Source: Candidatus Poribacteria bacterium (lineage in GTDB: Bacteria; Poribacteria; WGA-4E; PCPOR2b). Taken from it: a stretch of 64,000 bases of DNA. Under the pieces are notes generated by a model. It was not told where the DNA came from and ran no database searches. It saw nothing but the letters and a program-made list of their open reading frames with translations. Positions 23,120-43,961 of the stretch are shown in pieces. The stretch spans positions 4,640,001 through 4,704,000 of the forward strand of contig OZ220744.1 in the NCBI GenBank assembly GCA_965116925.1. The letters run 5' to 3'. The translations under genes were made by a program, and so were the position numbers. Each line of letters starts with the position of its first letter. Positions within the stretch are counted from its first letter, which is position 1.

Positions 23120-24181
23120 TTAGGAGAAGCGAAAGTGTGGGATCTGAGTTGTATTGTGCTGCCTGCGATAGGGATAATGGCTCTCGCCAAGATTCCTTCC
23201 TTCGATGATCTGACTGCCTTTGGGTTCAAAGCGGAAGCCCAACCGTGAGAGTCCCAAATCAGAGAGGGTCCCTGTTACCGCCCCCTGTTTCTCTGTGGGG
23301 ACATAAAACAGAAAGTATCCCCCGCCACCCGCTCCCAGAATCTTGCCACCCAGTGCACCCGCAGCGATAGCACTCTCATAGATAGTATCCAGCACTGAGT
23401 TTGAAATACTATCACAGAGAGAGCGTTTCAACGCCCAAGTGCGATGTAACAAATATCCAACCTCATCAAGGCAACCCCCATGGTGGTCTCCCTTTACGAG
23501 GACATCGTAAAACGTGGACACGAGCTCTTTCATATGCAGAAGCGTCTGGGGACTCGCAGCACGTTTCTGTTCGTGCAAGATGGCTTCAGCGCGTCGCTGA
23601 ATTCCCGTATAGAATAGGGTGAAATTCTCTTCCAAATGCGCTACCGTTTCGGGAGTTACTGGAATTTCTTGTGTGTGGACACTCTCATCTCTGTTAAACC
23701 GAATCCGCCGCAACCCACCGTAGGCGGCGATATACTGATCCTGTTTTCCGATAGGCTGGTTCAAGCATTCTATCTCAATCTCACACGCTTGATGCGCGAG
23801 AATCTCCACTGGCACTTCGATCCCTTGATAAGCGTAGAGGGCGTTGAGCAGTCCGACGGTTAATGCACTTGAGGACCCCAACCCACAGCCACGAGAGGGA
23901 ATATCGGAGGTAACTGTGATCGACACACCGCCGGCCATACCTGCTTTCCGCATCGCCTCTCGAATCAGATGGTGTTGAATATGATCCGGGGCCGAAACTG
24001 TTTCATGGTGGTCTGGGGTATCGATAGCAATCTGATAATTCTGTTCCCTTGTTATATGGACAGAGATATATTTATCAATAGCGGTGCTGATGACCTCACC
24101 CCCATGTTCTCGATAAAAGTTGGAGATGTCGGTTCCGCCCCCAACAAAACTGATTCTTATCGGTGTGCGTGAAATAATCAT
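23120..24181 (-). CDS. GHMP sugar kinase, HddA (heptose-7-phosphate kinase)-like
   Basis: RTPIRISFVGGGTD, GLGSSS, IGKQDQY, GAGGGG. Confidence 0.85.
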   Translation of the reverse strand: MIISRTPIRISFVGGGTDISNFYREHGGEVISTAIDKYISVHITREQNYQIAIDTPDHHETVSAPDHIQHHLIREAMRKAGMAGGVSITVTSDIPSRGCGLGSSSALTVGLLNALYAYQGIEVPVEILAHQACEIEIECLNQPIGKQDQYIAAYGGLRRIRFNRDESVHTQEIPVTPETVAHLEENFTLFYTGIQRRAEAILHEQKRAASPQTLLHMKELVSTFYDVLVKGDHHGGCLDEVGYLLHRTWALKRSLCDSISNSVLDTIYESAIAAGALGGKILGAGGGGYFLFYVPTEKQGAVTGTLSDLGLSRLGFRFEPKGSQIIEGRNLGESHYPYRRQHNTTQIPHFRFS

Positions 24182-25452: not shown

Positions 25453-26313
25453 TTATTTTATTCCTATCCTCCAGACACTTTGACTTTGAATCGCTAACCT
25501 ATAGGGTTGCGGTTTCACAATCTCACGAATTTGCGAACAATCAAGCGTATTGCCCTTTTGCGGTCGGTGGGTGTAATACCACCAGAATCGGACATAGAGT
25601 AGCATCCAAAAAATGCGGAAAACTCGAAAAGGGTTTCGATACTTTGTTTCGCCGTGAATTCGAGGATGGTGAGTGACGACTATTTCTCCGACTTTGTAAC
25701 CCCGCAAATAGAGCATCGAAGTGAGGCAACCGTGCATCTTTGACCGTAACGGTAACAATGATTTGATCGCCGCTGATCGGAATATCTTGAGTGAGCAACT
25801 CGTGTCGTGGACCGGGTCCCCGAAGATCAGATAGCGGATGAGGTTGAACGCTCTCGAAACGAACCGTTTGGTCGCAGAGTCTTGGCGGTATTTGCGCCAG
25901 CCACAGATAGCATCATATTTCCCGTCGATTGCTTCGAGCAATGTCGGAATATCTCGGGGATCGTTTTGTAAGTCACCGTCCATGCTGATGATATAGTCCC
26001 CTGTGGCGTAGGAGAACCCGGCAGAAAAAGCGGGTGTTTGACCTAGGTTTCTTTTTAATCGGATAATCGTTAAGTTGCAGATCTTTGTCTGAGCACATCG
26101 TAGGATTTTGTACGTGTCGTCAATGCTTCCGTCATCAACAAAGATGATTTCGTAATCGTAGGCTTGGGCATCAAGTACCGTATGCAGCCCTTTGACAAGT
26201 GGCATGATGTTGTCTTGTTCGTTACATACAGGTATTACAACCGAAATCTTTTTCTTGCATTTCGCTGAAATGGGGTTGAAATTGATAGCTGCCAATAGCT
26301 TACTCCTTATCAA
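25453..26313 (-). CDS. GT2 polyprenol-phosphate glycosyltransferase (ArnC/GtrB-like)
   Basis: VVIPVCNE, VDDGSID, DGDLQNDP, HHPRIHGETKY. Confidence 0.88.
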   Translation of the reverse strand: MIRSKLLAAINFNPISAKCKKKISVVIPVCNEQDNIMPLVKGLHTVLDAQAYDYEIIFVDDGSIDDTYKILRCAQTKICNLTIIRLKRNLGQTPAFSAGFSYATGDYIISMDGDLQNDPRDIPTLLEAIDGKYDAICGWRKYRQDSATKRFVSRAFNLIRYLIFGDPVHDTSCSLKIFRSAAIKSLLPLRSKMHGCLTSMLYLRGYKVGEIVVTHHPRIHGETKYRNPFRVFRIFWMLLYVRFWWYYTHRPQKGNTLDCSQIREIVKPQPYRLAIQSQSVWRIGIK

Positions 26314-26327: not shown

Positions 26328-27392
26328 CTAGGAGGCGGGCACCCGTTTCTGGGTCTGGTTACAAGCGGACCTCAGACGCACGCTGACTTGGGGTGTCAAT
26401 AGCACGAAACCCAATAATCCCAACAGAGCGGTCATAAGCACCTGACAACAATGTATGAACAGGCCAACTGAGAGTGCCGCCCCTATCTCCATATCGGTAA
26501 ACATGACCAAGCTACCCGCCCAACTCCCCTCTATGACCCCAAAACCGCTCAATGAAAACGGAAACCATGCAGCAATCATAACAATTGAAATAACAATCAA
26601 CAACACATTTAGCCTTTGATTGACATTTAGCGTTGATAAAAGAAAAAGATGACAACTCACGTTAATCCCATAAGTACAGAGAGAAAATGTGAGGGCTTTC
26701 AACAACAAACGCAGACGGCGAAACCGGTCAAGTTGAAGCGAGACTACTCCCAATTTATGACCGATGGAGTCTAGTAAAGCGGTGTGACGCCACGGATATA
26801 TTCGGACAATGCAGGTCCATATTGGTTCTATACCTCTGGGGAGCACACTGAAAAGAACGCGATTCACTATAATCAAGACCCCAGCGAGGCCTAAAATAGT
26901 CAACACATAACCTCTAGATTCGTGTCCCAACGTCAATAGACCAAAGGTGCCACCCAAGATAACAAATTGCAGGTCAAATAAACGTGCCTCAAACAGACTG
27001 CGAACTCCTTCGCTCACGGGGATTTTCAAGTGTCGGCGCAGCAGGGCAATATAGGAGAGCTCACCGACCATCAGTGGAAGCGTGCGCACAAAAAAGTTGT
27101 GACACAAAGTTATTGGGAAAAGGACCCCCAATGGCAGATCCTCCCGGTCCAAAAGCATACGGAAACGCAAAGCGCGGCAGATATTTAACAGAAAGAATAA
27201 GGCAAACAGTATAAAGAAAAATCGAAGGGGTACGTTTCTGGCAAGGCGGATGAAATGGGGGTAGTCAACCTGTCGCACCAGATAGATGACCAAGATCAGT
27301 GAAACCCCAAGCCCCAACAATGGTGAAAGGAGATGATTTAACCGATGTTTTTGAAACAGTGATTGAAACTGCATTGTGTGCATAGTCCTCAA
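26328..27392 (-). CDS. Flippase-like integral membrane protein (lysylphosphatidylglycerol synthase TM / UPF0104)
   Basis: Multi-TM; RALRFRMLL, LP..GE, RLFD, SGFGVIE. Confidence 0.8.
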   Translation of the reverse strand: MRTMHTMQFQSLFQKHRLNHLLSPLLGLGVSLILVIYLVRQVDYPHFIRLARNVPLRFFFILFALFFLLNICRALRFRMLLDREDLPLGVLFPITLCHNFFVRTLPLMVGELSYIALLRRHLKIPVSEGVRSLFEARLFDLQFVILGGTFGLLTLGHESRGYVLTILGLAGVLIIVNRVLFSVLPRGIEPIWTCIVRIYPWRHTALLDSIGHKLGVVSLQLDRFRRLRLLLKALTFSLCTYGINVSCHLFLLSTLNVNQRLNVLLIVISIVMIAAWFPFSLSGFGVIEGSWAGSLVMFTDMEIGAALSVGLFIHCCQVLMTALLGLLGFVLLTPQVSVRLRSACNQTQKRVPAS

Positions 27393-27593: not shown

Positions 27594-28967
27594 CTATGAA
27601 ATTCCCAACTTTTCCATCTTGAAACGGAGGGTGGAATAGGGGATACCGAGTTTTTTTGCGGTCTGACGGCGATTCCATCGGTTTTCTTCAAGTACCTGCA
27701 AGATCCACTCGGACTCGTTCTTGCCCGCTAATTGGTCAGATTGTGATAGCAGCTTTGCCGATACACCTTTTTGTATGTTGACATGTTCCGCCCCAATCAG
27801 CGAAACCTCCGGCGGACAAAGAGTAGCAGAGCACTCAACAATATTCCGCAACTCACGTACATTCCCAGGGTATTGATAATCCAGAAGGGACGATTGTGCT
27901 GCCTCTGAAAACCCTTCAAAGATACGTCCATTTCTAGCGGTGTACGTCCCCAGAAAATGGTCAGCCAACGGTAGAATATCTTCGGGACGTTCCCGAAGCG
28001 GTTGCAGGTGAATAGAAAAAACGTTGAGGCGATAGTATAGATCGTCGCGGAATTGTCCAGATTCGACAATGTGTGCGGGATCCTTGTTGACCGCACTAAT
28101 AACACGTTCTTGGACGGAAATCTCCTGAGTGCCACCAACAGGTATCAGTGTCCGGGTATCAAGAATCCGTAGTAGCTTCGCTTGTGTGTGGAGTGGGAGG
28201 TCCGCAATTTCATCCAGAAAAAGTGTGCCACTGTTTGCCATCTCAAAGTAACCGGGTCTATTCCTCGTAGCATTAGTGAACGCTCCTTTGACGTGACCAA
28301 AGAGTTCACTTTCGATCAGTGTCTCTGGCAACGCTGAACAATTAACAGCAATAAACGGACACTCTTCCAAAGAGGATTGACGATGAATTTCCCGTGCCAC
28401 CACCTCTTTTCCTGTGCCAGTTTCGCCCGTGAGGAAAATCGTATCAACATTTGCTTCAACCGCTTGCCGGATGCGTTCTCGCACCTGTTGTGTGGCTGAA
28501 CTATTTCCCACAAAGCATTGATTTTTTATTTGAAAGTTCTTACGTGCCTGTACTCCCTTGGGAGTCTCGCGTGGGTTGCAGTGGCTCCGATGTGATCTGC
28601 CCAATCGTCTCCCATTCTCATGTCCCGCATTGATATTGGGAAACTGAATTGATTGGGGTAAAACGTCCCTCGCCTCCAGCCGGAAGGCTTCAATTACCTT
28701 CCTCACGGTATCATTTCCAGAGATGAGCACAACCGGCGTTTCTTGCCCGTTGTGCTGAACTTTTGCCAAGAATTCAGTGTCGTTGATGCCGGGCATACAG
28801 AGATCAACGAGAACCAAGTCATAATGCTGCGCGTTAACCTTCTTTAGGGCAGTATGCCCATCGCGAACAACTTCAACTTGATGCCCTAAATTGCACAAAT
28901 AGTCTTTCAAGGTCCCACAGATGATTCTTTCATCGCCAGTCAACAGAATGTACAATGAATTTTCCAT
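27594..28967 (-). CDS. NtrC-type sigma54-dependent activator (REC-AAA+-Fis HTH), atypical
   Basis: GETGTGKE, ESELFGH, GAFTNA, LFLDEI, FRDDLYYRL, PGNVREL, C-terminal HTH. Confidence 0.92.
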   Translation of the reverse strand: MENSLYILLTGDERIICGTLKDYLCNLGHQVEVVRDGHTALKKVNAQHYDLVLVDLCMPGINDTEFLAKVQHNGQETPVVLISGNDTVRKVIEAFRLEARDVLPQSIQFPNINAGHENGRRLGRSHRSHCNPRETPKGVQARKNFQIKNQCFVGNSSATQQVRERIRQAVEANVDTIFLTGETGTGKEVVAREIHRQSSLEECPFIAVNCSALPETLIESELFGHVKGAFTNATRNRPGYFEMANSGTLFLDEIADLPLHTQAKLLRILDTRTLIPVGGTQEISVQERVISAVNKDPAHIVESGQFRDDLYYRLNVFSIHLQPLRERPEDILPLADHFLGTYTARNGRIFEGFSEAAQSSLLDYQYPGNVRELRNIVECSATLCPPEVSLIGAEHVNIQKGVSAKLLSQSDQLAGKNESEWILQVLEENRWNRRQTAKKLGIPYSTLRFKMEKLGIS

Positions 28968-29874: not shown

Positions 29875-29910
29875 GCTACACAAGACCTACTACTGCCGAT
29901 TGCCATGAGA

Positions 29911-30324: not shown

Positions 30325-30394
30325 GCAGTAACGAGTGATGCGCTGCATATGAAAACCGTGGTGCATCACTCATTATTCAATTGGAGGCTTTCAA

Positions 30395-31744: not shown

Positions 31745-32051
31745 TAGTGGATCCTAGAATTAATGAGACACTCCAAACCGCCCCGGTTTGCACCCAGGCC
31801 CAGTAGGTTCGGTTTCCTAACCAAACCGGCCTTCTACGCAACCTACTAGACCTAGCATGGCTTCTATAACTAGTTTTCCGTCCCCACAAGAGTCAAGCAA
31901 GTTTTGTTGGATTCAAGGTTTTTGCCTAAGATTCGGTGCGGTTGGAAACCGCACCTACCGGGGTCATAGCCCGATTTTCCCATCCCCGGTAGGCGAGGTT
32001 TCCTAACCTCGCCGATTTGCAGTGTCCAATTAATTCTAAAATCTACCATAG
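31743..32051. mobile_element. MITE family B copy containing GTAG-type REP hairpins
   Basis: Inverted ends ATAGTGGATCCTAGAATTAAT / ATTAATTCTAAAATCTACCAT. Confidence 0.65.
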
Positions 32052-32078
32052 TACGAAAGACCCGATTAGCTTATACAA

Positions 32079-33683
32079 ATGTCCAAAATCGATACCCTCC
32101 TCAAATTTATTGCCTATCAAAAGCAACACCCCCAAGCCAACGACAAAGAAATTGCCCAAGGGATTGGAATGTCAGCGCGACATGTCAGCCGGTGCAGAAA
32201 AGAGGTGAACCTTCTCAAACACCAGTTGGCTGAACCAACCTTGCAACCGGGACAGATCCAATTTATATTGTCACTGCTGAACCGACGGGAACCGGATCAG
32301 CAGGAGATTGCCCAACAGCTTCAAAAGCAGATGGGGGTCTCCTACACCGGAAGCCTTCGTGCCACGCGCCCCAATGAGGAGGCACCTGTTAGCTGGCTCG
32401 AAATCGGCGAGTTGATTCCAGTTGAAATGGGGGCTTTAGACCGCTTGCACCCAGTACTAAGTTTCTGGCTGCAAAACCTGTGCTATGATCCCCTCCTGAT
32501 GTCTCACCGAAATGGCGAAATCGAAGGACGGCTCGCAACAGGTTGCGAGGCGGTGCAAGGAAATTCGGAGTGGCATCTGACCTTGAGAAAAGACCTGCGT
32601 TGGAACGATGGAAAACCGATTACCCTTGAAGAGGTGATCGCGGCGTTTGCTGCGAGCCGCATCGCGCCGATTATCGCAGAGATGAAACCGGATGGCAAGG
32701 ACCAACTTCGAGTTCAACTTACTCAAGAGGACCCGTTCTTTCCACTTCGTCTGCGCAATATCTCCCCACTACCTTCCCACGCGTCCCAACCCTACCGTGT
32801 GATCTCAGGTCCCTATCGACTGAAGTATTTCCGTCCGGATGCCATGACCTTTCGCTTTGAGCCGAATCCAGATTACTATCGTGAGGGAAATCCCCACATT
32901 GATTGGTTGACCGTAAGGCGCTTCACACTACCCGCCAATGCGGTTAAGGCAGTTGAAAATGGGACACTGGATCTGCTTTTTGTCCCTTTTTATGCGATGC
33001 AGTCCCTCTACCAATTCCCAACGACGGTGCCTTGTCAACAGTGGCCCTTTTTTGAAGATAACTACTACGCCCTATTCCTCAACCGCTATCATGGACCTCT
33101 TTCGGACAAAAAGAACTGTAGGCTGCTTAAAGGAGCCATCGATTATCAGACAATCAACCTCTACCTGCGCATGGGACAGGTTGTTGAGGAAGAAAATCTC
33201 CCATCACTTCCTCACTCCCCTTTTGACATTCGGATTGCCTGCTCACGCGGCAGCTTTCGCTATTTGGCTCATCTCATCGGAAAGTCAGCGGGTTCTTCTG
33301 TGGTGAATCCTATCTCTGTCAAAGGGGAGATGCGGGAGGAGGCGGATGCCTTTTTAACGCAGTTCTTTTTCGGTTTTGGATACAGCAATCTTTCGCAATT
33401 CTTCCACTCCGACGGAGAACACAACTTTTTCGGCTACTCCAGTCCCCAAGTTGATGAGATGCTCTCTCAGCTCAACGGAATGTCGAACCCAAGCGCAAGA
33501 AGTAGGATTGGGCGGCAGGTATTGTCCCTCATACAGGAAGATTTCGCGGCGATCCTGTTGGCACCCTGCTTCCAATATACACTCTCGCCGTTAGAAATCC
33601 AGTTCGACGATAGCCTCACCGATACGATCGATCTGATTCAAAACATGAGCCAACTCACCGTGGAACGTCACCGGACCGGTTAG
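32079..33683 (+). CDS. HTH + family-5 solute-binding-domain protein (SgrR-like architecture)
   Basis: DKEIAQGIGMSARHVSRCR HTH; LRKDLRWNDGKPITLEEV, SGPYRL, FEPNPDYY SBP5 motifs; no signal peptide or lipobox. Confidence 0.8.
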   Translation: MSKIDTLLKFIAYQKQHPQANDKEIAQGIGMSARHVSRCRKEVNLLKHQLAEPTLQPGQIQFILSLLNRREPDQQEIAQQLQKQMGVSYTGSLRATRPNEEAPVSWLEIGELIPVEMGALDRLHPVLSFWLQNLCYDPLLMSHRNGEIEGRLATGCEAVQGNSEWHLTLRKDLRWNDGKPITLEEVIAAFAASRIAPIIAEMKPDGKDQLRVQLTQEDPFFPLRLRNISPLPSHASQPYRVISGPYRLKYFRPDAMTFRFEPNPDYYREGNPHIDWLTVRRFTLPANAVKAVENGTLDLLFVPFYAMQSLYQFPTTVPCQQWPFFEDNYYALFLNRYHGPLSDKKNCRLLKGAIDYQTINLYLRMGQVVEEENLPSLPHSPFDIRIACSRGSFRYLAHLIGKSAGSSVVNPISVKGEMREEADAFLTQFFFGFGYSNLSQFFHSDGEHNFFGYSSPQVDEMLSQLNGMSNPSARSRIGRQVLSLIQEDFAAILLAPCFQYTLSPLEIQFDDSLTDTIDLIQNMSQLTVERHRTG

Positions 33684-33754
33684 TAATAGTTGCTAGCAAC
33701 ATTTACTAATAATCGGGCGAATCGCTTCAATGACTTTTTTAACATTTGCCGTTG

Positions 33755-33797
33755 AAAGCCTGATGCTGACTGACTTTGGAGCATCAGCGTTTTCTTT
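33755..33797 (+). terminator. Probable intrinsic terminator
   Basis: CTGATGCT...AGCATCAG stem followed by CGTTTTCTTT. Confidence 0.55.
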
Positions 33798-33811
33798 GGC
33801 ACGGTAATTGC
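33797..33811 (+). promoter_or_regulatory. Sigma54 (-24/-12) promoter
   Basis: TGGCAC-GGTAA-TTGC, matching TGGCAC-N5-TTGC with GG-N10-GC spacing. Confidence 0.75.
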
Positions 33812-33912
33812 CCCTACTTGAGATTGTCCCGAATCAAAGATTCGGAAGAGTTCTATCTCTAACAGCAGAAGTAGATTGCTTGCTTCTGCAAATCCGAAAG
33901 GAGTTACTCATA

Positions 33913-34110
33913 ATGTTACGGAAAGCATTGATACTCGGAATGGTTTTCATTTTCGCACTGAGCCTATTGGCCGTGTCAATGATTACATGTTTTACCCATG
34001 AAGCAGAGGCACACGACTGGCAGCACCCGGGCGTTCACTGGAATTGCGGGGACGACGGGGTTTTCCACTTTGATCCAGGCTTCGCTGGCTGCACTTGGGA
34101 AACACATTAA
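33913..34110 (+). CDS. Secreted His/Cys-rich small peptide, paralog 1 (65 aa)
   Basis: AAAGGAG RBS; signal peptide ending AEA; mature HDWQHPGVHWNCGDDGVFHFDPGFAGCTWETH; paralog at 39468. Confidence 0.85.
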   Translation: MLRKALILGMVFIFALSLLAVSMITCFTHEAEAHDWQHPGVHWNCGDDGVFHFDPGFAGCTWETH

Positions 34111-34122
34111 AATTGGGCCTCT

Positions 34123-34164
34123 TCGTTATGCTAAAAGCCTATGGCGAGGCTTTTAGCATAACGA
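34123..34164. terminator. Perfect 18-bp hairpin after peptide 1
   Basis: TCGTTATGCTAAAAGCCT-N6-AGGCTTTTAGCATAACGA; conserved at 39710-39751; no U-tract. Confidence 0.7.
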
Positions 34165-34211
34165 CCTACCTGCTTTACCATCTGTTTGGTCCTAATTTGC
34201 TTGGTCCTAAG

Positions 34212-34532
34212 TACCTTGATTTCATCCAATGAATGCGGGGTTCTATACATTTCTCAAGCGTCCACAAATGTAGGCCGGCATTGAGCAGAAGCCGAGTCAA
34301 AAGGGCACCAACAGACTCCAGAAACCTTTTGACCGCAAAAGAGGCGAAATTCGCTCATTTTGCCCCTTTTTGCCTCATTGCTGAAAAGTTGGATCCCTGT
34401 CGTAGCAAGGGTGGAAAAGGTTCGCTGTGGAAATCTTGACCCTTTGAGATTGCTTGATAATGCACCGGCACTGGGTTGATTAGCCTTTGACAGATCAATA
34501 ACACCCTTACTTGCTTGGACAAAAATTAGGTA
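34212..34532. mobile_element. Possible IS remnant with imperfect terminal IRs
   Basis: TACCTTGATTTCATCCAA / TTGGACAAAAATTAGGTA; absent from the homologous position after peptide 2. Confidence 0.45.
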
Positions 34533-34622
34533 TTTACAAATGACTCTAGATGAACACTCCTCCCCGTAATGAAGCGATTACGTTGCCTTCCTACTCCGAA
34601 GGAGGGCAACATTTGAAAAGAG

Positions 34623-34780
34623 TAGGACTTACACGTTTTAGTAGGGAACAACAATTGTCGTTCCCTACAGACATCTTATAGGGCCTCTGCTGTAGTTGCT
34701 CGTTTCTTAATCCCGATGTATCGGGGCGGCGATAAATCCCCGAACTACAAAACCTTGAGCGTTCAACTGCGTCAGTCCTA
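34623..34780. mobile_element. MITE family A
   Basis: TAGGACTTACAC...TGCGTCAGTCCTA with AAGAG duplication. Confidence 0.75.
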
Positions 34781-34986
34781 AAGAGAATAGAATGAACAAA
34801 AGGTTAGCGAAAAACATCCTCCAAACGATTGGTGGTGTTCTCGCGCTAATAGCTTTTCAGAAAATATTTGCTAATTACGGATTATGAAGAAGGCATGAAG
34901 CGGATATTGGCAAAGCAGATACAGCAAATCCTTGAACGAGAAAAACAACCTAATCTAACCTCTACTGTTGCACAATCCACCTCCCA

Positions 34987-36690
34987 ATGAAACCGTTCTC
35001 CCAGAAAACTTCCTCAATTTTTTTTGCCGTGTGTTTATTCGTTGTTGCAAGTGCATCTCGATTGTTCTCTCTGGGGGCACACTGGACCTCTGATGAGGTT
35101 GGGTGGCTAGACCATAGTACGGTGTTTATGGCCGCAGTCGAGATGGGTGCCTTTTCAGAAACTCTGGTCACTTTTCATCCCGGTGTCATAACGATATGGC
35201 TTGCTGCCCTCCGCACCTTTTTTACCGAACCGCATATAAGTGTTCAAGGTTTAGCGTTAGCCCGGTGGTTCATCGGTGTCGCCCTGTTAAGCGGAATTGG
35301 TGTAGCAGCGATGCTGCTGTATCGATTGCTTGGACGTTGGGTTGCGGTCATCGGTGCGACGTTTCTGTCCTTCTCTCCACTCTTTTTAGCCCAATCCCGT
35401 CGCGTCCACACCGATGCCTTGGCGTCGATGTTTGTCCTGTTGACAGTCCTATCCCTCCTACTCTATTGTGGGGCACCCCAAAAACGCCGTTACCTTATCG
35501 GTTCTGGAATTGCATTCGGTCTAGCCTGCCTTGCCAAAAGCAACTCCCTTATTCTGCTCTTGTGGCTGCCTATCTGCTTCGTCCTGTTTCGGAATCGGGA
35601 GGAGACGTGGCGGCAGTTCTTTCTCCGGGGGCTTGGAGGGTGCCTCTGTTTCCTGAGTTGCACGCTACTCACCGTTTTCGCGCTGTGGCCCCTCTTTTGG
35701 AATCCCGTCTTTCTGATGTTTGGGGTGTGTCTGTTAGGTGTCACGCTGCTTGCGGATCGGGAGTTACAGAAAGGGGCACATGGACGACTCACCCTATATT
35801 TGGTATCGGTGGTGGTGGTAGGTGTGGTATCCGGCTATATGGTCCGAACCGTATGGCGGGTGTTCGATGGCGTTGCGTGGGCGATTACCACACCGCATAA
35901 CGTCGAACACTTCTTCCTCGGACAGGTGTTATATGACCCCGGCTGGCTCTTCTACCCGTTGGTGCTCTGTACAGAGACCACGCCGTTAACCCTTCCCTTA
36001 GTATTCGCTGGGTGTCTCTTTCTGTGGAGGAAACGCCATCAGGAAGGGTATGCGCGACAGTTTCGGATAGCACTCGCGTTGGTGGCGGTTGTCCTACTGT
36101 TCACCCTCTGTCTCTCGCTGACAAGCAAAAAGTTTAGTCGATATCTGCTACCCGCTTTCCCAATTCTGGAGATACTTGCCGCCATCGGCTTTTTTGAGTT
36201 TCTTAAATGGGGTTACTCCTATATCGACTCCCGTTTTGGGACCGAGACAAACTCCCAAAAACTCACCTTTTCTATCGTGACCCTCCTCTGTCTCTTCCTG
36301 ATCCAAATCCTGCCGGTCCTACGGCTTCACCCCTACTACGGCACCTACTACAACCTCTGCTTCAAACTCACTGATATCAGAAAAATTATCACAGTTGGCG
36401 CAGGTGCGGGGTATGATCTTGCGGCAAAATACCTAAATAGGAAGCCAAATGCACAAGCGCTACGGGTTCACACCTTTCCACCAAGTGCCCAATTCTTTTA
36501 TCAATACTTTATTGGACAGTCCTCCTGGTCCGAATCAGGTGAAGTGGCCGTCCCAGATTATGAGGTGGTCCATCTCCGCGAATCCCAAGCGGGATGGGTG
36601 CCGCAAACGGGAACGCTCAACGGACAGCTAGAACACGTGATAACCCTCAACGGCATTGACTATGTTTGGATTTATAGGATACCACGATAG
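34987..36690 (+). CDS. GT-C membrane glycosyltransferase (ArnT/PMT-like)
   Basis: WTSDE, HPG, SRRVHTD, RYLLP; many TM segments. Confidence 0.85.
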   Translation: MKPFSQKTSSIFFAVCLFVVASASRLFSLGAHWTSDEVGWLDHSTVFMAAVEMGAFSETLVTFHPGVITIWLAALRTFFTEPHISVQGLALARWFIGVALLSGIGVAAMLLYRLLGRWVAVIGATFLSFSPLFLAQSRRVHTDALASMFVLLTVLSLLLYCGAPQKRRYLIGSGIAFGLACLAKSNSLILLLWLPICFVLFRNREETWRQFFLRGLGGCLCFLSCTLLTVFALWPLFWNPVFLMFGVCLLGVTLLADRELQKGAHGRLTLYLVSVVVVGVVSGYMVRTVWRVFDGVAWAITTPHNVEHFFLGQVLYDPGWLFYPLVLCTETTPLTLPLVFAGCLFLWRKRHQEGYARQFRIALALVAVVLLFTLCLSLTSKKFSRYLLPAFPILEILAAIGFFEFLKWGYSYIDSRFGTETNSQKLTFSIVTLLCLFLIQILPVLRLHPYYGTYYNLCFKLTDIRKIITVGAGAGYDLAAKYLNRKPNAQALRVHTFPPSAQFFYQYFIGQSSWSESGEVAVPDYEVVHLRESQAGWVPQTGTLNGQLEHVITLNGIDYVWIYRIPR

Positions 36691-37132
36691 GCTGAATGGG
36701 GAGGTAAAATAGCCTATATAAGTTGATTTCTAACGAGCACAAAATTATTGTCTGAATCGCGGATTAACCAGATGACGCGGATTGCGCGGATTCATGTATG
36801 AATCAAGATTTAAGGATTTACAGGATACTCCTCAGCCCCTGAACTAATGTTAGGAGCGTTGAGGATTCGCTAGGTAAATGTAGGGAACGCAGATCTGCGT
36901 TCCCTACGATGCCCCAAAAGGGTAGGCGTATCAGGAGAAGGATTTCCGCAGCCCAAACCCACAGTGGGAGAGGCTGCCTCGCCTCAATGTATACGCTATC
37001 GGTCTCATTAGCGATTCAGACACGTGCCACATGTCGCCCCGCTGGGGCTAAATGAACCAACGACCCTGTTCCCATTTTCACCCATTGGCTCATGTTAAGA
37101 AATCGTGCAACAGGGATCTGGGATGGAAGAAA

Positions 37133-37164
37133 GAAACCGAGTTTTCAAGAAAAAACTCGGTTTC
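37133..37164. repeat. Palindromic repeat copy 4
   Basis: GAAACCGAGTTTTCAAGAAAAAACTCGGTTTC. Confidence 0.85.
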
Positions 37165-37190
37165 AAACCTCAAATACCTAAAAACCTACG

Positions 37191-37973
37191 ATGAATCTGA
37201 TTAAACTCCTATCTACCGATTTTTTCACCGGTCAAATCTTGTTCTCAGGGAAGGGGTTGCTCGATATCCTGTGGTTTCTCATCCGCAACCCCCAAGTAAA
37301 GTCTCTAAGACTCGCTGTGCTCATCCTGCAGCTGATCCCCAAATATACAAAGGTGTCGGTGAAGCGACTGATAAATCTCTACCGCTTGACACAAAAGGTA
37401 AACAAACTGAGATTACCCGGAGATATAGTCGAGTGTGGGGTGTGGAATGGCGGATCTGCCGCCATGATGGGGGTAGCGGACCGAGACGATGAAACCTCCG
37501 GCAAAGTCAGGAAGTTATGGCTATTTGATTCGTTTCGTGGGCTGCCACCGCCAAGCAACAGAGACGGAAAACAGGCAAGGGAAACCTATTTTCAAGGGTG
37601 GTGTCACGGTGAGACGGAGAAGGTTAAACAAATTTTCCGGCGATTTCGGCTCTCGTTACAGCATATCAACATTGTTCCCGGGTGGTTTGATGAAACATTG
37701 CAGACAGCAGATCTTCAAACCATCGCTCTCCTGCATATTGACGCCGATTGGTATGCGTCGGTCAAGATAGTTTTAGAAACCTTATATGATAAAGTGGTTG
37801 AAGGCGGGTTTGTTGTCTTGGATGATTATTGGAGATGGCCCGGATGCCGTGAGGCGGTAACAGATTATCTCAAAGAACATCAGATTCAAGGGGTAGTATT
37901 AAAAAAAGCGGACCTACACGGCGTTTATTTTCAAAAACCGCACCGATGCAGAGGAGAAACAGTCGATAATTGA
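37191..37973 (+). CDS. TylF/MycF-family sugar O-methyltransferase
   Basis: GDIVECGVWNGGS, LFDSFRGLP, GWFDETL, LHIDADWY, LDDY. Confidence 0.9.
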   Translation: MNLIKLLSTDFFTGQILFSGKGLLDILWFLIRNPQVKSLRLAVLILQLIPKYTKVSVKRLINLYRLTQKVNKLRLPGDIVECGVWNGGSAAMMGVADRDDETSGKVRKLWLFDSFRGLPPPSNRDGKQARETYFQGWCHGETEKVKQIFRRFRLSLQHINIVPGWFDETLQTADLQTIALLHIDADWYASVKIVLETLYDKVVEGGFVVLDDYWRWPGCREAVTDYLKEHQIQGVVLKKADLHGVYFQKPHRCRGETVDN

Positions 37974-37975
37974 TG

Positions 37976-38992
37976 TTATCGGTCGATCTGTTTGAGCCGT
38001 CCCCACATTGTAAACTTTTTGCCAGAGGAAGAGACCGAAAAAGGAGAGTTAAACCATGCAGGATTAATGTCATCATGATGGGGATTATTGGTGAGGTTTT
38101 GAAGATTCTTACCATTGACGTTCATCACGTAGATTTCTGCGCCCCCCTTCCTGTAGGACGCGAAGGCAATCCGTTTACCATCAGGGGACCATGAGGGATC
38201 TCTGTCATTCTGGCGATTTTTTGTGAGTCTTCGTTCATTCTGTCCATCGGCATCCATCACGTAGATTTCAAAGTTTTGAAGTTCCCCCTTTCCATCAGAC
38301 GCGAAGACAATCCGTTTACCGTCCGGTGACCATGAGGGATACCAGTCATTCTTTCGATTTTCAGTAAGTCTTTGTTCATTCCCCCCATCGGCGTCCATTA
38401 CGTAGATTTCATAAGTGATTCCAAATTTGTTTTCAAAGTGCCCATCTCTACGGGCACTGAAGACAATGCGTTCACCGTCGGGGGACCATGAGGGATGCCT
38501 GTCATCATCACCATCGGGATTTTTAGTGAGTCTTTGTTCATTTTGCCTATCGGCATCCATCACGTAGATTTCATAGTTAAAACGCCCATCCCTATCAGAC
38601 GTGAAAGCAATCCGTTTACCGTCGGGGGACCATGAGGGATCCCACTCATGCCCGGGATTTTCAGTAAGTCTCTGCTGATTATCCCCATCGGCGTCCATCA
38701 CGTAGACTTCATAAGTGATTATAAGACCGTGTCTAAAGCCATCTCTATTAGAAAGAAAAACAATGCGCTTGCCGTCGGGAGACCATGAGGGGTCCCTATC
38801 ATCGGAAGGATTGTTAGAGAGGTTTTGCTGATTCTCCCCATCAACATCCATCACGTAAATTTCCCAGTTCCCATCCCTCTTAGACGAGAAGGCAATTTGT
38901 GCCTGTGAGTCAACGCATACCATCAGCGGCGTTAGACCCAACACTACAACGATAGCTAAAACCAAATGTCCGAGATTGTCCCTTCGGTGCAT
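37976..38992 (-). CDS. Secreted PD40/TolB-like beta-propeller, paralog 1
   Basis: Repeated EIYVMDADG...RLT...PSWSPDG; signal peptide; GKKFTMWGRLK tail. Confidence 0.9.
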   Translation of the reverse strand: MHRRDNLGHLVLAIVVVLGLTPLMVCVDSQAQIAFSSKRDGNWEIYVMDVDGENQQNLSNNPSDDRDPSWSPDGKRIVFLSNRDGFRHGLIITYEVYVMDADGDNQQRLTENPGHEWDPSWSPDGKRIAFTSDRDGRFNYEIYVMDADRQNEQRLTKNPDGDDDRHPSWSPDGERIVFSARRDGHFENKFGITYEIYVMDADGGNEQRLTENRKNDWYPSWSPDGKRIVFASDGKGELQNFEIYVMDADGQNERRLTKNRQNDRDPSWSPDGKRIAFASYRKGGAEIYVMNVNGKNLQNLTNNPHHDDINPAWFNSPFSVSSSGKKFTMWGRLKQIDR

Positions 38993-39221
38993 CTGTTATT
39001 CCTCCTCTGTTTTCAAATCGTATTTTTTATCCTTTGGGGTTGATAGAGATAAGCTCGTGTTGGCAATTCTTTCCAATTAAAGGGTGGCGTGTGCATAAAT
39101 ATATCTTTTATTACAAACTATTTGAGTAATTTATGCAAAACTGTACCAAAATAAGGCATCAAACAAACAAAATCACTAACATATTCCACCGCGAAACATT
39201 ATGCACGCCCCTCAATTATGA

Positions 39222-39290
39222 AGTATATCAACCAATAACCTTAAAATGCCAGCTAAATTTAAGGGGACTGGACATATTATGTCATAACTC
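39222..39290. promoter_or_regulatory. Promoter/operator module copy C
   Basis: Minus-strand TGnTATACT, CCAG, GACAT-N3-ATGTC at the same spacing as A and B. Confidence 0.7.
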
Positions 39291-39467
39291 TCCCAAAAGT
39301 GACTTGAATTGTTATCGGTTGGCTGGTATTTTATAATTGTAACGGGGCAGATAAATTCGTGAACTGTAAAAGTTGTTCATGCCTGTCCCGAAATTGGAAG
39401 ATTTAGAAGTTCTATCTCTAGCAGCAGAAACCGATTACTTCTGCAAATCTGAAAGGAGTTAACCATA

Positions 39468-39683
39468 ATGTTAAGAAAAGCATTGACCCTCGGAACGGTT
39501 TTCATTTTAGCACTAAGCCTGTTGGCTGTGTCAATGATTACATGTTTTACCTATGACTCAGAGGCAGACCCTGGGCACGCAGGCGATCACTGGGATTGCG
39601 GGGACGCCGGGATTTTCCACCATGATCCAGGCCCGCCCTTGGACTGCACATTTATCCCCGGTGGCCATGTTACTGGAGAATAG
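39468..39683 (+). CDS. Secreted His/Cys-rich small peptide, paralog 2 (71 aa)
   Basis: Near-identical signal peptide, leader and hairpin to 33913; mature DPGHAGDHWDCGDAGIFHHDPGPPLDCTFIPGGHVTGE. Confidence 0.85.
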   Translation: MLRKALTLGTVFILALSLLAVSMITCFTYDSEADPGHAGDHWDCGDAGIFHHDPGPPLDCTFIPGGHVTGE

Positions 39684-39709
39684 ACTTCAGTGGTGCAAAT
39701 CAGGCACCT

Positions 39710-39751
39710 TCGTTATGCTAAAAGTCTTGTCATAGGCTTTTAGCATAACGA
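39710..39751. terminator. Hairpin after peptide 2
   Basis: Same stem as 34123-34164 with a different loop. Confidence 0.7.
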
Positions 39752-40168
39752 CCTACCTGCTTCGCTGGCTGTTTGGTTCTAAGTGGAGTATACGCCAGCC
39801 TATTTACAAATGACCTTAGGTGAGTGTTCCTCCTCTGTTCTCAAATCGGTTTTCTATTCTTTAGGGTTGATACAGGTCAACTTGTTTAGGCAACCCCTTT
39901 CCAATTAAGTCCCGCCTCTGTTGTCTCGTTTAAGAACGGACGGAATAGTTGATTCCTCCGATTTATGCCGATTTATCAAGCAGCCTTGACAAGTCCCGAT
40001 TCTCGGGATGCTCGGAACGGACCTGGAACGGCTTGGTAATGTCTCGATTAGATCGGAACAAATCAAGTCGGAAGTGGCAATTCAGATCATTATCACATGG
40101 AGTCTTCCGACCCTTCTTTGACGTTTATGACCCAACCTCAACAAACATTGTTTTCTCAATAATGGCAA

Positions 40169-41194
40169 TTATTGGTCGACCTGTTTGAGCTGTCCCCATA
40201 TTGTAAACTGTTTGTCGACAGAAGAAACCGACAACGGAGAGTTAAACCATGCAGCATTAATGTCATCATGGCGATTATTGGTGAGGTTCTGCTGATTTCC
40301 ACCATCAGCGTCCATCACGTAGATTTCACGGTTTCCATCTCTATCAGACGAGAAGGCAATCCGTTCACCGTCAGGGGACCAGGAGGGAAACCTGTCATGA
40401 ACGCGATTTTCAGTGAGTTTTTGTTGATTCCCCCCATCAGCGTCCATCACGTAGATTTCAATGTTTACAAGGTCCCCCTTCCTATCAGACGCGAAGGTAA
40501 TTCGCTTACCATCGGGGGACCATGAGGGACCCCAGTCATTCTTTCGATTTTCAGTGAGTCTTTGTTGATTTCCACCATCGGCGTTCATCACGTAGATTTC
40601 ATAAGTGACTGCAAACTTGGTTTCAAAGTGCCCCTCCCTACGGGCACCGAAGACAATGCGTTGACCATCAGGGGACCATGAGGGATGCCTATCATCAAAA
40701 AAGGGACTGTCAGTGAGTCTTTGTTGATTCTCCCCATCGGCGTCCATCACGTAGATTTCAAGAGATTGAGGGATCTTCCCATTAAACGCGACTCTACTAG
40801 ACGCGAAGGCAATCCGTTTACCGTCAGGGGACCATGAGGGATATCTGTCATCATTGCGATCCTTAGTGAGGTTTTGAGGGTTGCCCCCATCGGCGTCCAT
40901 CACGTAGATTTCAGAAGTGAGTCTACCATCTATAGCGTGCCCATCCCTATTAGAGAAAAAGGCAATGCGCTTGCCATCCGGAGACCAAGAGGGGTCCCTA
41001 TCATTAGAGGGATTGTTAGTGAGGTTTTGTTGATTCCCCCCATCGGCATCCATCACGTAAATTTCCCAGTTCCCATCCCTATCAGACGAGAAGGCAATCC
41101 GTGCTTGTGCGTCAACGCATACCATTAGCAGCGTCAGGCCCAAAACTATAACACCAGCTAAAATGAGGTGTGCAAGATTCTTCCTTCGGTGCAT
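40169..41194 (-). CDS. Secreted PD40/TolB-like beta-propeller, paralog 2
   Basis: PSWSPDG repeats; DKQFTIWGQLK tail. Confidence 0.9.
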   Translation of the reverse strand: MHRRKNLAHLILAGVIVLGLTLLMVCVDAQARIAFSSDRDGNWEIYVMDADGGNQQNLTNNPSNDRDPSWSPDGKRIAFFSNRDGHAIDGRLTSEIYVMDADGGNPQNLTKDRNDDRYPSWSPDGKRIAFASSRVAFNGKIPQSLEIYVMDADGENQQRLTDSPFFDDRHPSWSPDGQRIVFGARREGHFETKFAVTYEIYVMNADGGNQQRLTENRKNDWGPSWSPDGKRITFASDRKGDLVNIEIYVMDADGGNQQKLTENRVHDRFPSWSPDGERIAFSSDRDGNREIYVMDADGGNQQNLTNNRHDDINAAWFNSPLSVSSVDKQFTIWGQLKQVDQ

Positions 41195-41235
41195 CTGTTA
41201 TTCCTCCTCTGTTTTCAAATCGCTTTATTATTCTT

Positions 41236-41368
41236 TAGACTTACGCAGTTGAACAGTCAAAGCCCTGTAGCTCGGCGATTCATCGCCGTTGGACACCGTT
41301 ACCAACCCTGGTCTCGGAACGGACGCCCGATGAATCGGGCAACTACAATCTGGAGTGCGTAAGTCCTG
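41236..41368. mobile_element. MITE family A inserted in the leader of TolB-like paralog 2
   Basis: TAGACTTACGCA...TGCGTAAGTCCTG flanked by ATTCTT duplication; leader homology resumes after it. Confidence 0.8.
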
Positions 41369-41533
41369 ATTCTTTGGAATTGATAGAGGTCAGATTGGGT
41401 TGGCAACCCCTTTACGATTAAAAGGGCAATTCGTATTATTATCGTCCGAACTTATCGCCCCTTCGTTGGCGTTTATGAGCTACTCCCGTATGTTTCCGCG
41501 TCTCAGCAAACGCTGTTTTCTCAACAATAGCAG

Positions 41534-42496
41534 TTATCGGTCAATCTGTTTGAGCCATCCCCACATTGTAAATTTTTTGCCAGCGGGAGAGATCGAGAAA
41601 GAAGAGTTAAACCATGCAGGCTCTTCTTCATCCTCGGGATGATTGGTGAGGTTCCGAGGATTACTCCCATCGGCAGCCATGACGTAGACGTCCGGATTCA
41701 AATCCCTCGTCCTATTCGACACGAAGGCAATTCGCTTACCGTCGGGTGACCATGAGGGAGACCGATCAGCATCGGGATGATTGGTGAGGTTTTGCTTATT
41801 ATCCCCATTGGTGTCCATCACATAGATTTCCCAGTTTCTCAGCCTCCCGGAAGTAAAAGCAATGCGCTTACCGTTAGGAGACCATGAGGGGCTAGAGTCA
41901 GAATCTTCATGATGGGTGAGTCTACGCTGATTCCCCCCATTGGCGTCCATCACGTAGATGTCAATGTTCCCACCGCTACTGGAAACAAAGACAATGCGTT
42001 TACCGTCGGGTGACCATGAGGGATCCTCGTCAAAACGGTTATTATTGGTGAGATTTTTAGGGTTGCCCCCATCGGTGTCCATCACGTAGATTTCACTGCG
42101 CCCCTTCCTATCAGACACGAAGACAATCTGTTTACCGTCAGGCGACCATGAGGGGTTCCATTCATCAAAGTCATTATTAGAAAGGTTTCGCTGATTGCCC
42201 CCATCGGCATCCATCACATAGATTTGCCGGTTCCAATCCCTATCATTCCTATCAGCAGTAAAGGCAATCCGTTTACCGTCAGGCGACCATGAGGGATGTT
42301 TATCATCACCAGGATTGTTAGTGAGATTTCGCGGATTATTCCCATCGGCGTCCATCACGTAGATTTCCCAGTGCCAATCCCTATCAGACATGAAGGCAAT
42401 CCGTGCCTGTGCACCAACGGCTACCATCAGCAGCGTTAGAACCAAGACGACAACGCTAGCTGAAACCAAATATGCGAGAGTGTCCCTTCGGTGCAT
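41534..42496 (-). CDS. Secreted PD40/TolB-like beta-propeller, paralog 3
   Basis: PSWSPDG repeats; PAGKKFTMWGWLK tail. Confidence 0.9.
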   Translation of the reverse strand: MHRRDTLAYLVSASVVVLVLTLLMVAVGAQARIAFMSDRDWHWEIYVMDADGNNPRNLTNNPGDDKHPSWSPDGKRIAFTADRNDRDWNRQIYVMDADGGNQRNLSNNDFDEWNPSWSPDGKQIVFVSDRKGRSEIYVMDTDGGNPKNLTNNNRFDEDPSWSPDGKRIVFVSSSGGNIDIYVMDANGGNQRRLTHHEDSDSSPSWSPNGKRIAFTSGRLRNWEIYVMDTNGDNKQNLTNHPDADRSPSWSPDGKRIAFVSNRTRDLNPDVYVMAADGSNPRNLTNHPEDEEEPAWFNSSFSISPAGKKFTMWGWLKQIDR

Positions 42497-42551
42497 CTGT
42501 TATCCCTCCTCTGTTCTCAAATCGGTTTATTATTTTTTGGGGTTGATATAA

Positions 42552-42620
42552 AGTATATCAACCAATAATCTCAAAATACCAGCCAACTTTAAGGAGTCTG
42601 GACAGAATACGTCTACACTC
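42552..42620. promoter_or_regulatory. Promoter/operator module copy D
   Basis: Minus-strand TGnTATACT, CCAG, GAC-N7-GTC at identical spacing. Confidence 0.7.
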
Positions 42621-42672
42621 TCTGGAAAATGGTTGAGATTACATGCAAGAATAATTTATATTGTTATATTGT

Positions 42673-42857
42673 TAGGAGTTACGCACTTCAGTTTGTAGTA
42701 GCGCAATTCATTGCACGTTACCACGGGCGATAAATCGCCCGACTACGAACCTTTATCCCTATTGTAGTTGCCCGATTCATCGGGCGTTGGAAACGGTATC
42801 CTACGGCGATTCATCGCCGAGCTACAGGGCTTTGATTGTTCAACTGTGTAAGTCCTA
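42673..42857. mobile_element. MITE family A
   Basis: TAGGAGTTACGCA...TGTGTAAGTCCTA with TATTGT duplication. Confidence 0.8.
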
Positions 42858-42875
42858 TATTGTATAAAATAATCT

Positions 42876-43091: not shown

Positions 43092-43151
43092 GCGTTAAAA
43101 TAACGTGATTCTCAACTTTTATAGAAAAATGAATTACATAGGAGGACAACC

Positions 43152-43961
43152 ATGTCAAATATGTCAAAACACGTGACAACCTGTATTCTTGTTGCAACTT
43201 TTTTTACTGCCGTGATTACACCGGTTTTTGGACATGAGCAGCAGTGGATATTGCCCAACTTTTTCTATACGGACCATGAATCTCCTTGGTTGGGTATGGA
43301 GCACACAGCGGGAGATCAACGGTTTGTCTCTGGACATGGGTTAGGAAGCCCTTTATGGATTATCCATCCGGAAGGATGGCGTATGGGACGACCATCATCT
43401 ATTTTTGTTGGTCAGACGAGGACTGTCGGGGAGATAGAACTGCGAGAGCCGGGCACCTATCGAATCGAAACAAACCATCCGGTCCAATATGTGACAGAAT
43501 TTGAGGTAGATGGCAAAAAGAGGTGGGCTGGCAAATCGAAAGACCAACTACCCGGCAAAAAGATTCTCCAGTCGGCACATCGATGGTCTCAGACCACCAC
43601 TTTTGTGACGGTGAAGAAATATACGAAACGTGTTTTGGAACCTGCCGGTGCATTTTTAGAAATCGTGCCAGTAACCCATCCAAACAAGATTTTTGTGGGA
43701 AAGCCATTTGCAGTTCGCGTTCTATCAAGAGGTCAACTGGTTCCGGGCCAAGAGGTTCAAGCTTACTCGGAGATGGACAGCGGACATGACACACCCCTAG
43801 TAACAGTTACCAACGCCGATGGTGAATGTGAATTAACCTTTCCATCTTCCGGTATGTATCTACTAACCGCCCGACTCCGTCAGGATGCCAAAGATTCTTC
43901 CCGCGCCAATATTGATGTATTTAATGTATCAATGCTGGTAGAGGTTAGGAAGAAAAGGTAA
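43152..43961 (+). CDS. DUF4198 (NikM-like/metal uptake-associated) exported protein
   Basis: Signal peptide followed by His; LEIVPVTHP, TNADG, GMYLL. Confidence 0.8.
   Translation: MSNMSKHVTTCILVATFFTAVITPVFGHEQQWILPNFFYTDHESPWLGMEHTAGDQRFVSGHGLGSPLWIIHPEGWRMGRPSSIFVGQTRTVGEIELREPGTYRIETNHPVQYVTEFEVDGKKRWAGKSKDQLPGKKILQSAHRWSQTTTFVTVKKYTKRVLEPAGAFLEIVPVTHPNKIFVGKPFAVRVLSRGQLVPGQEVQAYSEMDSGHDTPLVTVTNADGECELTFPSSGMYLLTARLRQDAKDSSRANIDVFNVSMLVEVRKKR

Follow-up and report, generated by a model that had tools for sequence, protein, structure and literature searches.

Hypervariable, probably exported peptides linked to a GT-C glycosyltransferase gene in Poribacteria

Introduction

Cyanobactins, prochlorosins and conotoxins are encoded by many precursor genes per genome, in which a fixed leader precedes cores that cannot be aligned, and one apparently promiscuous enzyme serves them all. 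A similar arrangement occurs in the stretch of DNA analysed here (the window), 64,000 nucleotides from the 6.47-Mb genome of a Candidatus Poribacteria, a sponge-symbiont bacterium (contig OZ220744.1, positions 4,640,001 to 4,704,000), where two small precursor genes, P0001 and P0002, lie on either side of genes for a GT-C glycosyltransferase and a TylF-family sugar O-methyltransferase. We are highly confident that they belong to a real, large and unannotated family of likely exported, hypervariable peptides, and we estimate a probability of roughly one half that these are disulfide hairpins O-glycosylated on a C-terminal Thr or Ser, after export, by the linked GT-C. An earlier, sequence-only reading had noticed the two genes and proposed disulfide-closed metal-binding peptides; its observation holds but was too narrow, having passed over the C-terminal Thr/Ser, the GT-C and TylF genes that separate the copies, the sigma-54 promoter ahead of copy 1 and how large the family is.

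Each of the closest described systems resembles this one in part. Sec-exported class II bacteriocins have a cationic core, whereas the Poribacteria cores have a median net charge of -3. The recurrent neighbour families annotated around the precursors include no C39 peptidase and, in contrast to the cyanobactin and prochlorosin systems, no cyclase, lanthionine synthetase or PatA-type protease, while conotoxins are animal products. Glycocins such as sublancin, pallidocin and glycocin F (PMC6405829, PMC7616364), as characterized in the extracts of those papers used here, share with the Poribacteria peptides a ribosomal precursor, a leader joined to a core that is disulfide-bonded (here by prediction), a co-located glycosyltransferase and a sugar proposed on Ser, Thr or Cys. 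According to the same extracts (PMC6405829), glycocins differ in having a double-glycine leader, a SunT-like peptidase/ABC exporter, a SunS-like glycosyltransferase and five core Cys forming two disulfides, where the Poribacteria peptides have an A-x-A leader, two to four Cys, predicted strands, a membrane GT-C that would use a lipid-linked donor, and a hypervariable acidic core. The family has neither the leader and exporter nor the five Cys of a glycocin, and on our analysis its peptides would function much as glycocins do, with maturation through a Pmt-type pathway.

In the actinobacterial Pmt pathway (Ppm1 and Pmt), as outlined in the excerpted source (PMC8698208), a GT2 enzyme makes a polyprenol-phosphate sugar, from which a GT-C enzyme carrying a DE motif in loop 1 passes the sugar on to Ser/Thr residues in exported proteins. 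The Poribacteria enzyme likewise has a GT-C fold with a DE motif after its first transmembrane helix; Pmt is a general system, whereas the Poribacteria gene is multi-copy and sits in cassettes with small peptides and TylF. Three-component glycosylation systems (GtrABC, ArnCT; PMC11127046) also combine a GT2, a flippase-like protein and a GT-C, and candidates for all three parts (polyprenol-phosphate sugar synthase, flippase and GT-C) occur here, the LPG_synthase_TM protein being the putative flippase. However, the acceptors named in the extracts of that source are O-antigen, lipid A or wall polymers, and no linkage to hypervariable peptides is described in them. The srp proteusin-type ribosomally synthesized and post-translationally modified peptides (RiPPs; bioRxiv 10.1101/2023.06.09.544420) are similarly encoded by small precursor genes in sponge-symbiont genomes, but in the excerpted preprint they have nitrile-hydratase-like leaders, a conserved C-terminal core and YcaO or halogenase enzymes, whereas here the core is variable and such enzymes are absent. 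The general hallmarks of a RiPP (a conserved leader, a variable core and co-located candidate modifying enzymes) are present, with modification of the core suggested by gene linkage and tail conservation. In a literature search covering paper listings and extracts, we found no paper on the peptide family or on an exported RiPP glycosylated by a GT-C, and the family is apparently undescribed, although the Poribacterial 'Other' clusters of the srp preprint could bear on its novelty.

Results

Precursor genes and leader

The two precursor genes are:

33913..34110, + strand: precursor peptide 1 (P0001), 65 residues; leader 33913-34011, core 34012-34107
39468..39683, + strand: precursor peptide 2 (P0002), 71 residues; leader 39468-39566, core 39567-39680

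Both open reading frames (ORFs) exist as first described, but the genome holds three copies rather than two, the third full cassette being located near 1.896 Mb; when a profile built on the upstream block was run over the 6.47-Mb genome, it matched these three cassettes only (E < 1). Contigs of three sequencing runs, of a kind not recorded, span the cores of P0001 and P0002. The leaders of the pair are identical at 27 of 33 residues and have the look of a signal peptide, with a basic N-region, a long hydrophobic stretch, an A-x-A end and a predicted helix over residues 2-34. Cleavage at the predicted site would leave an N-terminal His in copy 1 only (A-E-A/H, against S-E-A/D in copy 2), as had been proposed.

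Further copies, which the earlier reading suggested looking for, are numerous. Searching with P0001 gave 41 matches in 14 of 61 genomes (this one, 12 of the 19 other genomes in its genus, and one from a different genus), and a profile of 39 sequences matched 15 of 176 genomes of the phylum, adding one weak, distant member, G126. The fetched loci yielded 42 ORFs, of which 40 are intact, one has no start and one is truncated. Against the protein collection, the peptide profile matched 265 clusters at 90% identity, from metagenomes. Cores were taken from the fetched loci and from 120 listed clusters of the 265, giving 146 distinct cores in all; counts with n = 138 cover 41 plus 97 further cores, and those with n = 146 add eight sequences skipped by the extraction pattern.

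P0001 and P0002 fall in no Pfam or NCBIfam family, and the 39 members gave only weak, scattered matches. Searching 50% clusters with the peptide profile returned 28 matches and no unrelated family: 24 were family members or fragments, and four were long repetitive proteins that we dismissed as spurious. Rfam models run over positions 28900-43200 gave one chance-level match and none on the cassettes, and the core profile gave only repeat-summed matches in the PDB, with no significant stretch. A fold search with the peptide model matched the leader helix alone (best Z 3.7, uninformative), and the best ESM Atlas matches, at 0.87 for the peptide and 0.77 for a partner protein (F8, see below), are unnamed proteins that serve as leads only.

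The leader looks frozen, yet it is under ordinary purifying selection akin to that on the adjacent GT-C. Across the 39 sequences, the proportions of synonymous (pS) and non-synonymous (pN) differences in the 33-residue leader are 0.268 and 0.074 (ratio 0.275), as compared with 0.279 and 0.083 (ratio 0.296) in the neighbouring GT-C. Together with the intact frames, this is the coding constraint to be expected of translated genes. Ala33 and Cys26 are each present in 97 of 97 leaders. The invariant Cys and the long hydrophobic helix could mean that the leader is never cut at A-x-A, with Cys26 lipidated or the helix kept as a membrane anchor and the core displayed on the surface as an antigen or decoy. 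We think this improbable, because the relatives in G023 and G126, as well as P0256, P0257 and P0260, have A-x-A without Cys26, Ala33 is just as constant, and the M-I-T-C at Cys26 does not form a canonical lipobox.

Hypervariable cores with a conserved tail

The cores are 30-48 residues long with a median pairwise identity of 30%, in keeping with the suggestion that a conserved leader accompanies a diversifying core. Over 26 cassettes, mean DNA identity is 0.50 in the core against 0.89 in the leader and 0.90 in the GT-C, core distance is uncorrelated with GT-C distance (rho 0.02), and cores within one genome are no more similar than cores between genomes, from which we infer that cores are probably swapped, and diversify, separately from the rest of their cassette. 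In the 11 closest core pairs, which were picked by similarity so that the ratio is biased down, pN/pS is 0.82 against 0.28 for their leaders, and core pS is twice leader pS. P0002 and a G014 copy have identical leaders, yet pS between their cores is 0.49; for P0001 and a G019 copy the pattern is reversed. A diversity-generating retroelement as the source of the variation was rejected on inspection, given that the cores differ in length.

The cores keep a frame of the form aromatic-x-Cys...Trp-x-Cys: aromatic-x-Cys describes the first Cys of 124 and the last Cys of 101 out of 138 cores, and the two mostly lie 17-23 residues apart. The AlphaFold model of the peptide (mean predicted local distance difference test, pLDDT, 81; predicted template modelling score, pTM, 0.42) has a helix at 2-34 and short strands at 42-44 and 61-63 beside the two Cys. 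The core is likely a disulfide-closed hairpin, with which the model is consistent, though not proof. The mature motif first read from the pair, H-x-G-x-H-W-x-C-G-D..., is present in both copies (with x3 in copy 1 and x4 in copy 2) but is no family trait, occurring in 2 of 138 cores, this pair alone. The 95th percentile of net charge is +1 (n = 138). The WxxW/C sequon for Trp C-mannosylation is found in just 28 of 138 cores, so that the cores as a set do not qualify as substrates of that modification. A complex prediction for core 1 and the adjacent PD40 propeller scored 0.03 against a mark of 0.32.

His accounts for 11% of core residues (4.7-fold enriched), with means of 4.5 His and 2.7 Trp per core (n = 138), and His1 or a His three before the first Cys occurs in 141 of 146 cores. 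The peptides could accordingly be metal scavengers (for Ni, Co, Zn or Cu) diversified against piracy, with glycosylation absent or secondary, an explanation that is compatible with the glycosylated hairpin but that we regard as unlikely. In its favour, DUF4198 proteins are encoded in 13 of the 32 peptide loci over which neighbours were counted, and a recurrent regulator with an SBP_bac_5 domain has NikA-type best matches in NCBIfam, although far below the cut-off. Nevertheless, there is no fixed ligand set: the number of His per core ranges from 1 to 9, His1 is present in 81 of 146, the amino-terminal Cu(II)- and Ni(II)-binding (ATCUN) motif (His3) in 1 of 138 and the Ni-hook (H-C-x-x-P-C) in 0 of 138, so that the fixed metal site is unsupported. 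Of the disulfide-closed metal-binding peptide first proposed, what stands is the two framing Cys, which lie on strands with predicted pairing. Annotated neighbour families that recur include no TonB receptor or Ni/Co transporter, an ABC transporter is found in 6 of 32 loci only, and the regulator has four more genomic copies without these peptides.

The conserved tail lies at the very end of the core. Thr or Ser occurs at positions -4 to -2 from the C-terminus in 40 of 41 cores and then in 94 of 97 further ones (142 of 146 overall), as against a background of 16-20% in windows inside cores and, among other proteins of this genome, 32% for 4268 long ORFs and 38% for 113 small ORFs of exported appearance. 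The residue preceding a terminal His or Gln is Thr in 82 cases, Ser in 18 and Gln in one (n = 101), and the residue one further in takes ten different values. Ala and Ile, each one transition away from the commonest tail codon, were never seen, which argues for selection for a hydroxyl.

The linked GT-C glycosyltransferase

34987..36690, + strand: GT-C glycosyltransferase (PMT_2, Pfam PF13231), with D36-E37

This enzyme has a GT-C fold, its model (pLDDT 82, pTM 0.87) matching STT3, ArnT, AglB, ALG9/12, DPY19, Pmt4 and PglB. In all 23 of the sequences compared, the most divergent at 32% identity, D36-E37 follows the first helix, and such a DE motif is given as the GT-C catalytic hallmark in the excerpted source (PMC8698208). 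Judging from sequence and model, the enzyme is likely active. PMT_2 scores above its cut-off, and PF02366 is below for the window GT-C and above for a 90% identical relative; a sequence search of the PDB with the GT-C alone returned nothing.

A same-strand GT-C gene lies no more than 1.5 kb downstream of 28 of the 42 peptide copies, and no more than 6 kb downstream of 33. Within the genus, 11 of 12 genomes with the peptide have the GT-C, and the seven genomes without a peptide match are also without a GT-C match. Several GT-C copies at L045, L038, L033 and L053 are broken in two or interrupted by a stop or an insertion; with transposase-like genes common at these loci, this indicates that cassettes decay and move.

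Tail glycosylation by the GT-C is the most economical account because it explains both the invariant hydroxyl and the GT-C linkage. The fixed leader would send the precursor through Sec, with cleavage after A-x-A, the two framing Cys would close a disulfide hairpin, and the GT-C would then move a sugar from a lipid carrier to the tail Thr/Ser outside the cytoplasm. The lipid-linked sugar would be supplied by the GT2, the flippase-like protein and the sugar kinase, and methylated by TylF. With the loop between the Cys being swapped and mutating at a far higher rate than the remainder of the cassette, the outcome would be a strain-specific library of acidic, His/Trp-rich glycopeptides, whose most likely role is recognition or competition, either among symbionts or towards the host.

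The pairing of GT-C with small peptides extends beyond this family. GT-C relatives occur in 68 of 176 genomes of the phylum, and a small exported-looking ORF lies upstream of the distant GT-C at 23 of 38 loci (L077 being counted despite having no GT-C call) as compared with 8 of 60 random windows; these ORFs have tail Ser/Thr in 25 of 32 cases at GT-C loci against 3 of 9 in random windows. The small-ORF detector is crude, as genome-wide it found P0002 and missed the other two family members. The cargo upstream of GT-C is varied, comprising hydrophobic bacteriocin-like peptides, Cys-rich peptides and Cys-rich double-glycine proteins, the last beside a C39 peptidase/DUF1573 protein at several loci, including a third GT-C locus of this genome. 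G126, the most distant peptide relative, precedes an unrelated PMT_2 enzyme. A second cargo family is present in 42 of 176 genomes, and 20 of its loci were fetched with wide flanks; at least two Ser/Thr in the last four residues were found in 6 of 6 members beside GT-C against 6 of 20 without (a post hoc measure).

The cluster at L100:4970-19821 (about 3.565-3.580 Mb of this genome, - strand) encodes, with a sigma-54 box, a glutaredoxin-domain membrane protein, an FGE-sulfatase, a Cys-rich exported double-glycine protein, a LolA-like/C39 peptidase/DUF1573 protein, a GT-C, a flippase-like protein, a GT2, a sugar kinase and a nucleotidyltransferase; clusters like it occur in L065, L066, L067, L072 and L076. 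At L064:10200-11950 and L119, the GT-C is directly preceded by a tandem set of exported hydrophobic peptides rich in Gly, Ala and Val, several of them with terminal Ser runs, which by eye resemble bacteriocin precursors. L073:10424-10651 (- strand) encodes a 75-residue exported-looking peptide with no core Cys and an alternating hydrophobic pattern, which ends His-Thr-Ser and has the same partner-GT-C layout.

A number of observations weigh against tail glycosylation. The GT-C fold is silent on the acceptor, because STT3, ArnT (lipid A) and AglB rank together in the fold search and ArnT (E 1.4e-4) and Pmt1 (E 4e-4) score alike by profile. Copy 2 and eight other copies have no GT-C within 6 kb downstream, and physical linkage and common descent inflate every co-occurrence count. 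The tail Thr/Ser is missing in 4 of 146 cores and in the G126 peptide, and part of the constancy of the tail Thr may lie at the DNA level, as its codon is mostly ACA or ACT (33 of 40). One clean disulfide does not account for every core, since the Cys count is odd in 56 of 138. By the criterion chosen in advance, the second cargo family gives 6 of 6 beside GT-C against 9 of 20 without, counts that are not kinship-corrected and in which five of the six GT-C-linked members were search seeds. The genome also encodes six further small exported-looking peptides (at 2220476, 2773126, 2776024, 2832020, 4235085 and 4237383) that have membrane-anchored partners and no PMT_2 gene nearby; most contain Cys, the partners are N-terminally anchored and of no identified family, and one family among the six occurs in 42 of 176 genomes. 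Finally, a GT2, a flippase and a GT-C form the standard three-component set for surface glycans in the extracts of PMC11127046.

Several of these points fit an explanation in which the peptides are exported unmodified, with only a disulfide, as strain-specific toxins or signals, and the GT2, flippase, GT-C and TylF alter the surface glycan or lipid of the producer in a Gtr- or ArnT-like way, for self-protection or as a self tag. We consider this possible, though doubtful. ArnT is among the top fold matches and is the best sequence match of the GT-C, the best NCBIfam match of a related GT2 is ArnC-type (below cut-off), other exported peptides of the genome do without a GT-C, and genes for membrane-anchored proteins (F8 and F13), found after the peptide at 8 and 5 of the 32 loci respectively, are reminiscent of immunity genes. 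On the other hand, it leaves unexplained the near-invariant tail Thr/Ser and the Ser/Thr tails on unrelated GT-C cargo, the acidic cores are unlike the cationic peptides repelled by ArnT-type masking, and the partner genes, which belong to no known family, are reduced to remnants in most copies and survive whole at a minority of loci. The window itself carries one, left by a deletion between peptide 1 and the GT-C:

34792..34950, + strand: frameshifted remnant (tblastn, translation), the start of partner F8 joined to the end of partner F13

Control elements of the cassettes

33797..33811, + strand: sigma-54 (-24/-12) promoter-like box of copy 1, GG-N10-GC consensus
33825..33912, + strand: 5' untranslated block of copy 1; hairpin 33865-33889, ribosome-binding site 33897-33903
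34123..34164, + strand: 3' stem-loop of copy 1, inverted repeat 100%, no U-tract
39309..39379, + strand: sigma-70-like promoter 39309-39337 (10/12 promoter matches) and short palindrome 39360-39379, copy 2
39384..39467, + strand: 5' untranslated block of copy 2; hairpin 39424-39444, ribosome-binding site at 39452
39710..39751, + strand: 3' stem-loop of copy 2, inverted repeat 94%

The common upstream block with its 16-nt spacer, the small hairpin and the 18-bp downstream inverted repeats are all as reported from the sequence alone. The two copies carry different promoter-like elements. A sigma-54 box is found at -107 to -122 in 14 of 42 cassettes, and in copy 1 the common block begins about where a transcript from it would start. 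The palindrome-marked promoter region of the copy-2 type occurs in 21 of 42 cassettes and never alongside a sigma-54 box; the sigma-70-like call is weak by itself, as three such sites were found against 2.0 expected. The 8-bp 5' hairpin is kept over 39 sequences, with changes that are almost all one-sided and none compensatory. In the 3' hairpin, 5 of 15 pairs show compensatory changes (38 sequences); it was not called as an intrinsic terminator, and is likely an mRNA-stabilising element or a partial stop. An integron attC site was rejected for this hairpin on inspection, as the arm order is reversed.

His/Trp-rich cores ahead of a hairpin might also suggest attenuator-type leader ORFs, or spurious ORFs in duplicated DNA, rather than exported products. 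This is hardly credible given a signal-peptide-like leader under purifying selection and frames intact in 40 of 42 copies; moreover, most cores have no tandem run of His/Trp codons, the hairpin is no called terminator, and the downstream genes are unrelated to amino-acid synthesis.

Other genes of the window

23120..24181, - strand: GHMP sugar kinase; best NCBIfam match of a relative is HddA, below cut-off
25453..26313, - strand: GT2, which with the next gene is a candidate supply of lipid-sugar donor
26328..27392, - strand: LPG_synthase_TM protein, putatively flippase-like
27594..28967, - strand: sigma-54 response regulator, candidate activator of copy 1
32079..33683, + strand: helix-turn-helix (HTH) and SBP_bac_5 protein (HTH-SBP5), candidate SgrR-like regulator without export signal
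37191..37973, + strand: TylF-family sugar O-methyltransferase, PF05711 (E 7e-50), single copy in the genome
37976..38992, - strand: exported PD40/TolB-like beta-propeller; two more at 40169-41194 and 41534-42496
43152..43961, + strand: exported DUF4198 protein

Across the 32 loci, PD40 genes are present in all 32, GT-C in 29, TylF in 19, HTH-SBP5 in 18 and DUF4198 in 13, followed by flippase-like genes (11), GT2 (9), radical SAM (6), sigma-54 regulators (6) and sugar kinases (5). GT2 and flippase-like genes are also found directly downstream of a distant GT-C paralog in the same genome. The GT2 with the ArnC-type best match comes from a related locus, where all 22 NCBIfam matches are below cut-off and none is SunS-named. 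HTH-SBP5 is the nearest upstream gene in 16 of 42 cassettes; of its six copies in the genome (others include 2592575, 2857495, 3586842 and 4030454) only two adjoin a peptide of the family, two are divergent from PD40 arrays without a family peptide and one follows a second radical SAM gene. The propellers at 37976-42496 end in a T-x-W-G-x-x-K tail and have 52 strong copies in the genome, about 5% of which lies within 8 kb of a strong PD40 copy, yet all 32 peptide loci hold PD40 genes. Between GT-C and TylF, at about 36740-37165, are intergenic palindromic elements that are apparently high-copy repeats, because contig depth there is very high in three runs.

At 30151-31744 (+ strand) a 57-residue acidic precursor with a CC pair is followed by a radical SAM/SPASM enzyme, whose best NCBIfam match, below cut-off, is the geopeptide maturase; in L033 too, the enzyme comes after a homologous precursor. 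This is a separate RiPP system, and we ruled out the radical SAM enzyme at 30395 as a maturase of the peptides described here, since it is present in 6 of 32 loci and has its own precursor.

Discussion

Poribacteria are abundant, uncultured sponge symbionts, and the library described here comprises hundreds of distinct, likely exported peptides that belong to no Pfam or NCBIfam family. More tentatively, these peptides may form a novel class of ribosomal natural products whose maturation follows export: disulfide hairpins secreted through Sec, which a dedicated GT-C, recognising nothing but the C-terminal Thr/Ser, would O-glycosylate with a methylated sugar. The enzyme would then be a portable module for many unrelated small exported peptides across Poribacteria, and the library a combinatorial, conotoxin-like one invisible to enzyme-based genome mining. 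If the GT-C does modify the peptides, RiPP chemistry would be extended to the periplasm, the large orphan PMT_2 family would gain a peptide acceptor, and a sequence-tolerant enzyme for tail glycosylation would become available. Even if the peptides are unmodified, their cores define exact masses that can be sought in sponge peptidomes, and they are short enough to synthesise as candidates for recognition between symbionts or between symbiont and host.

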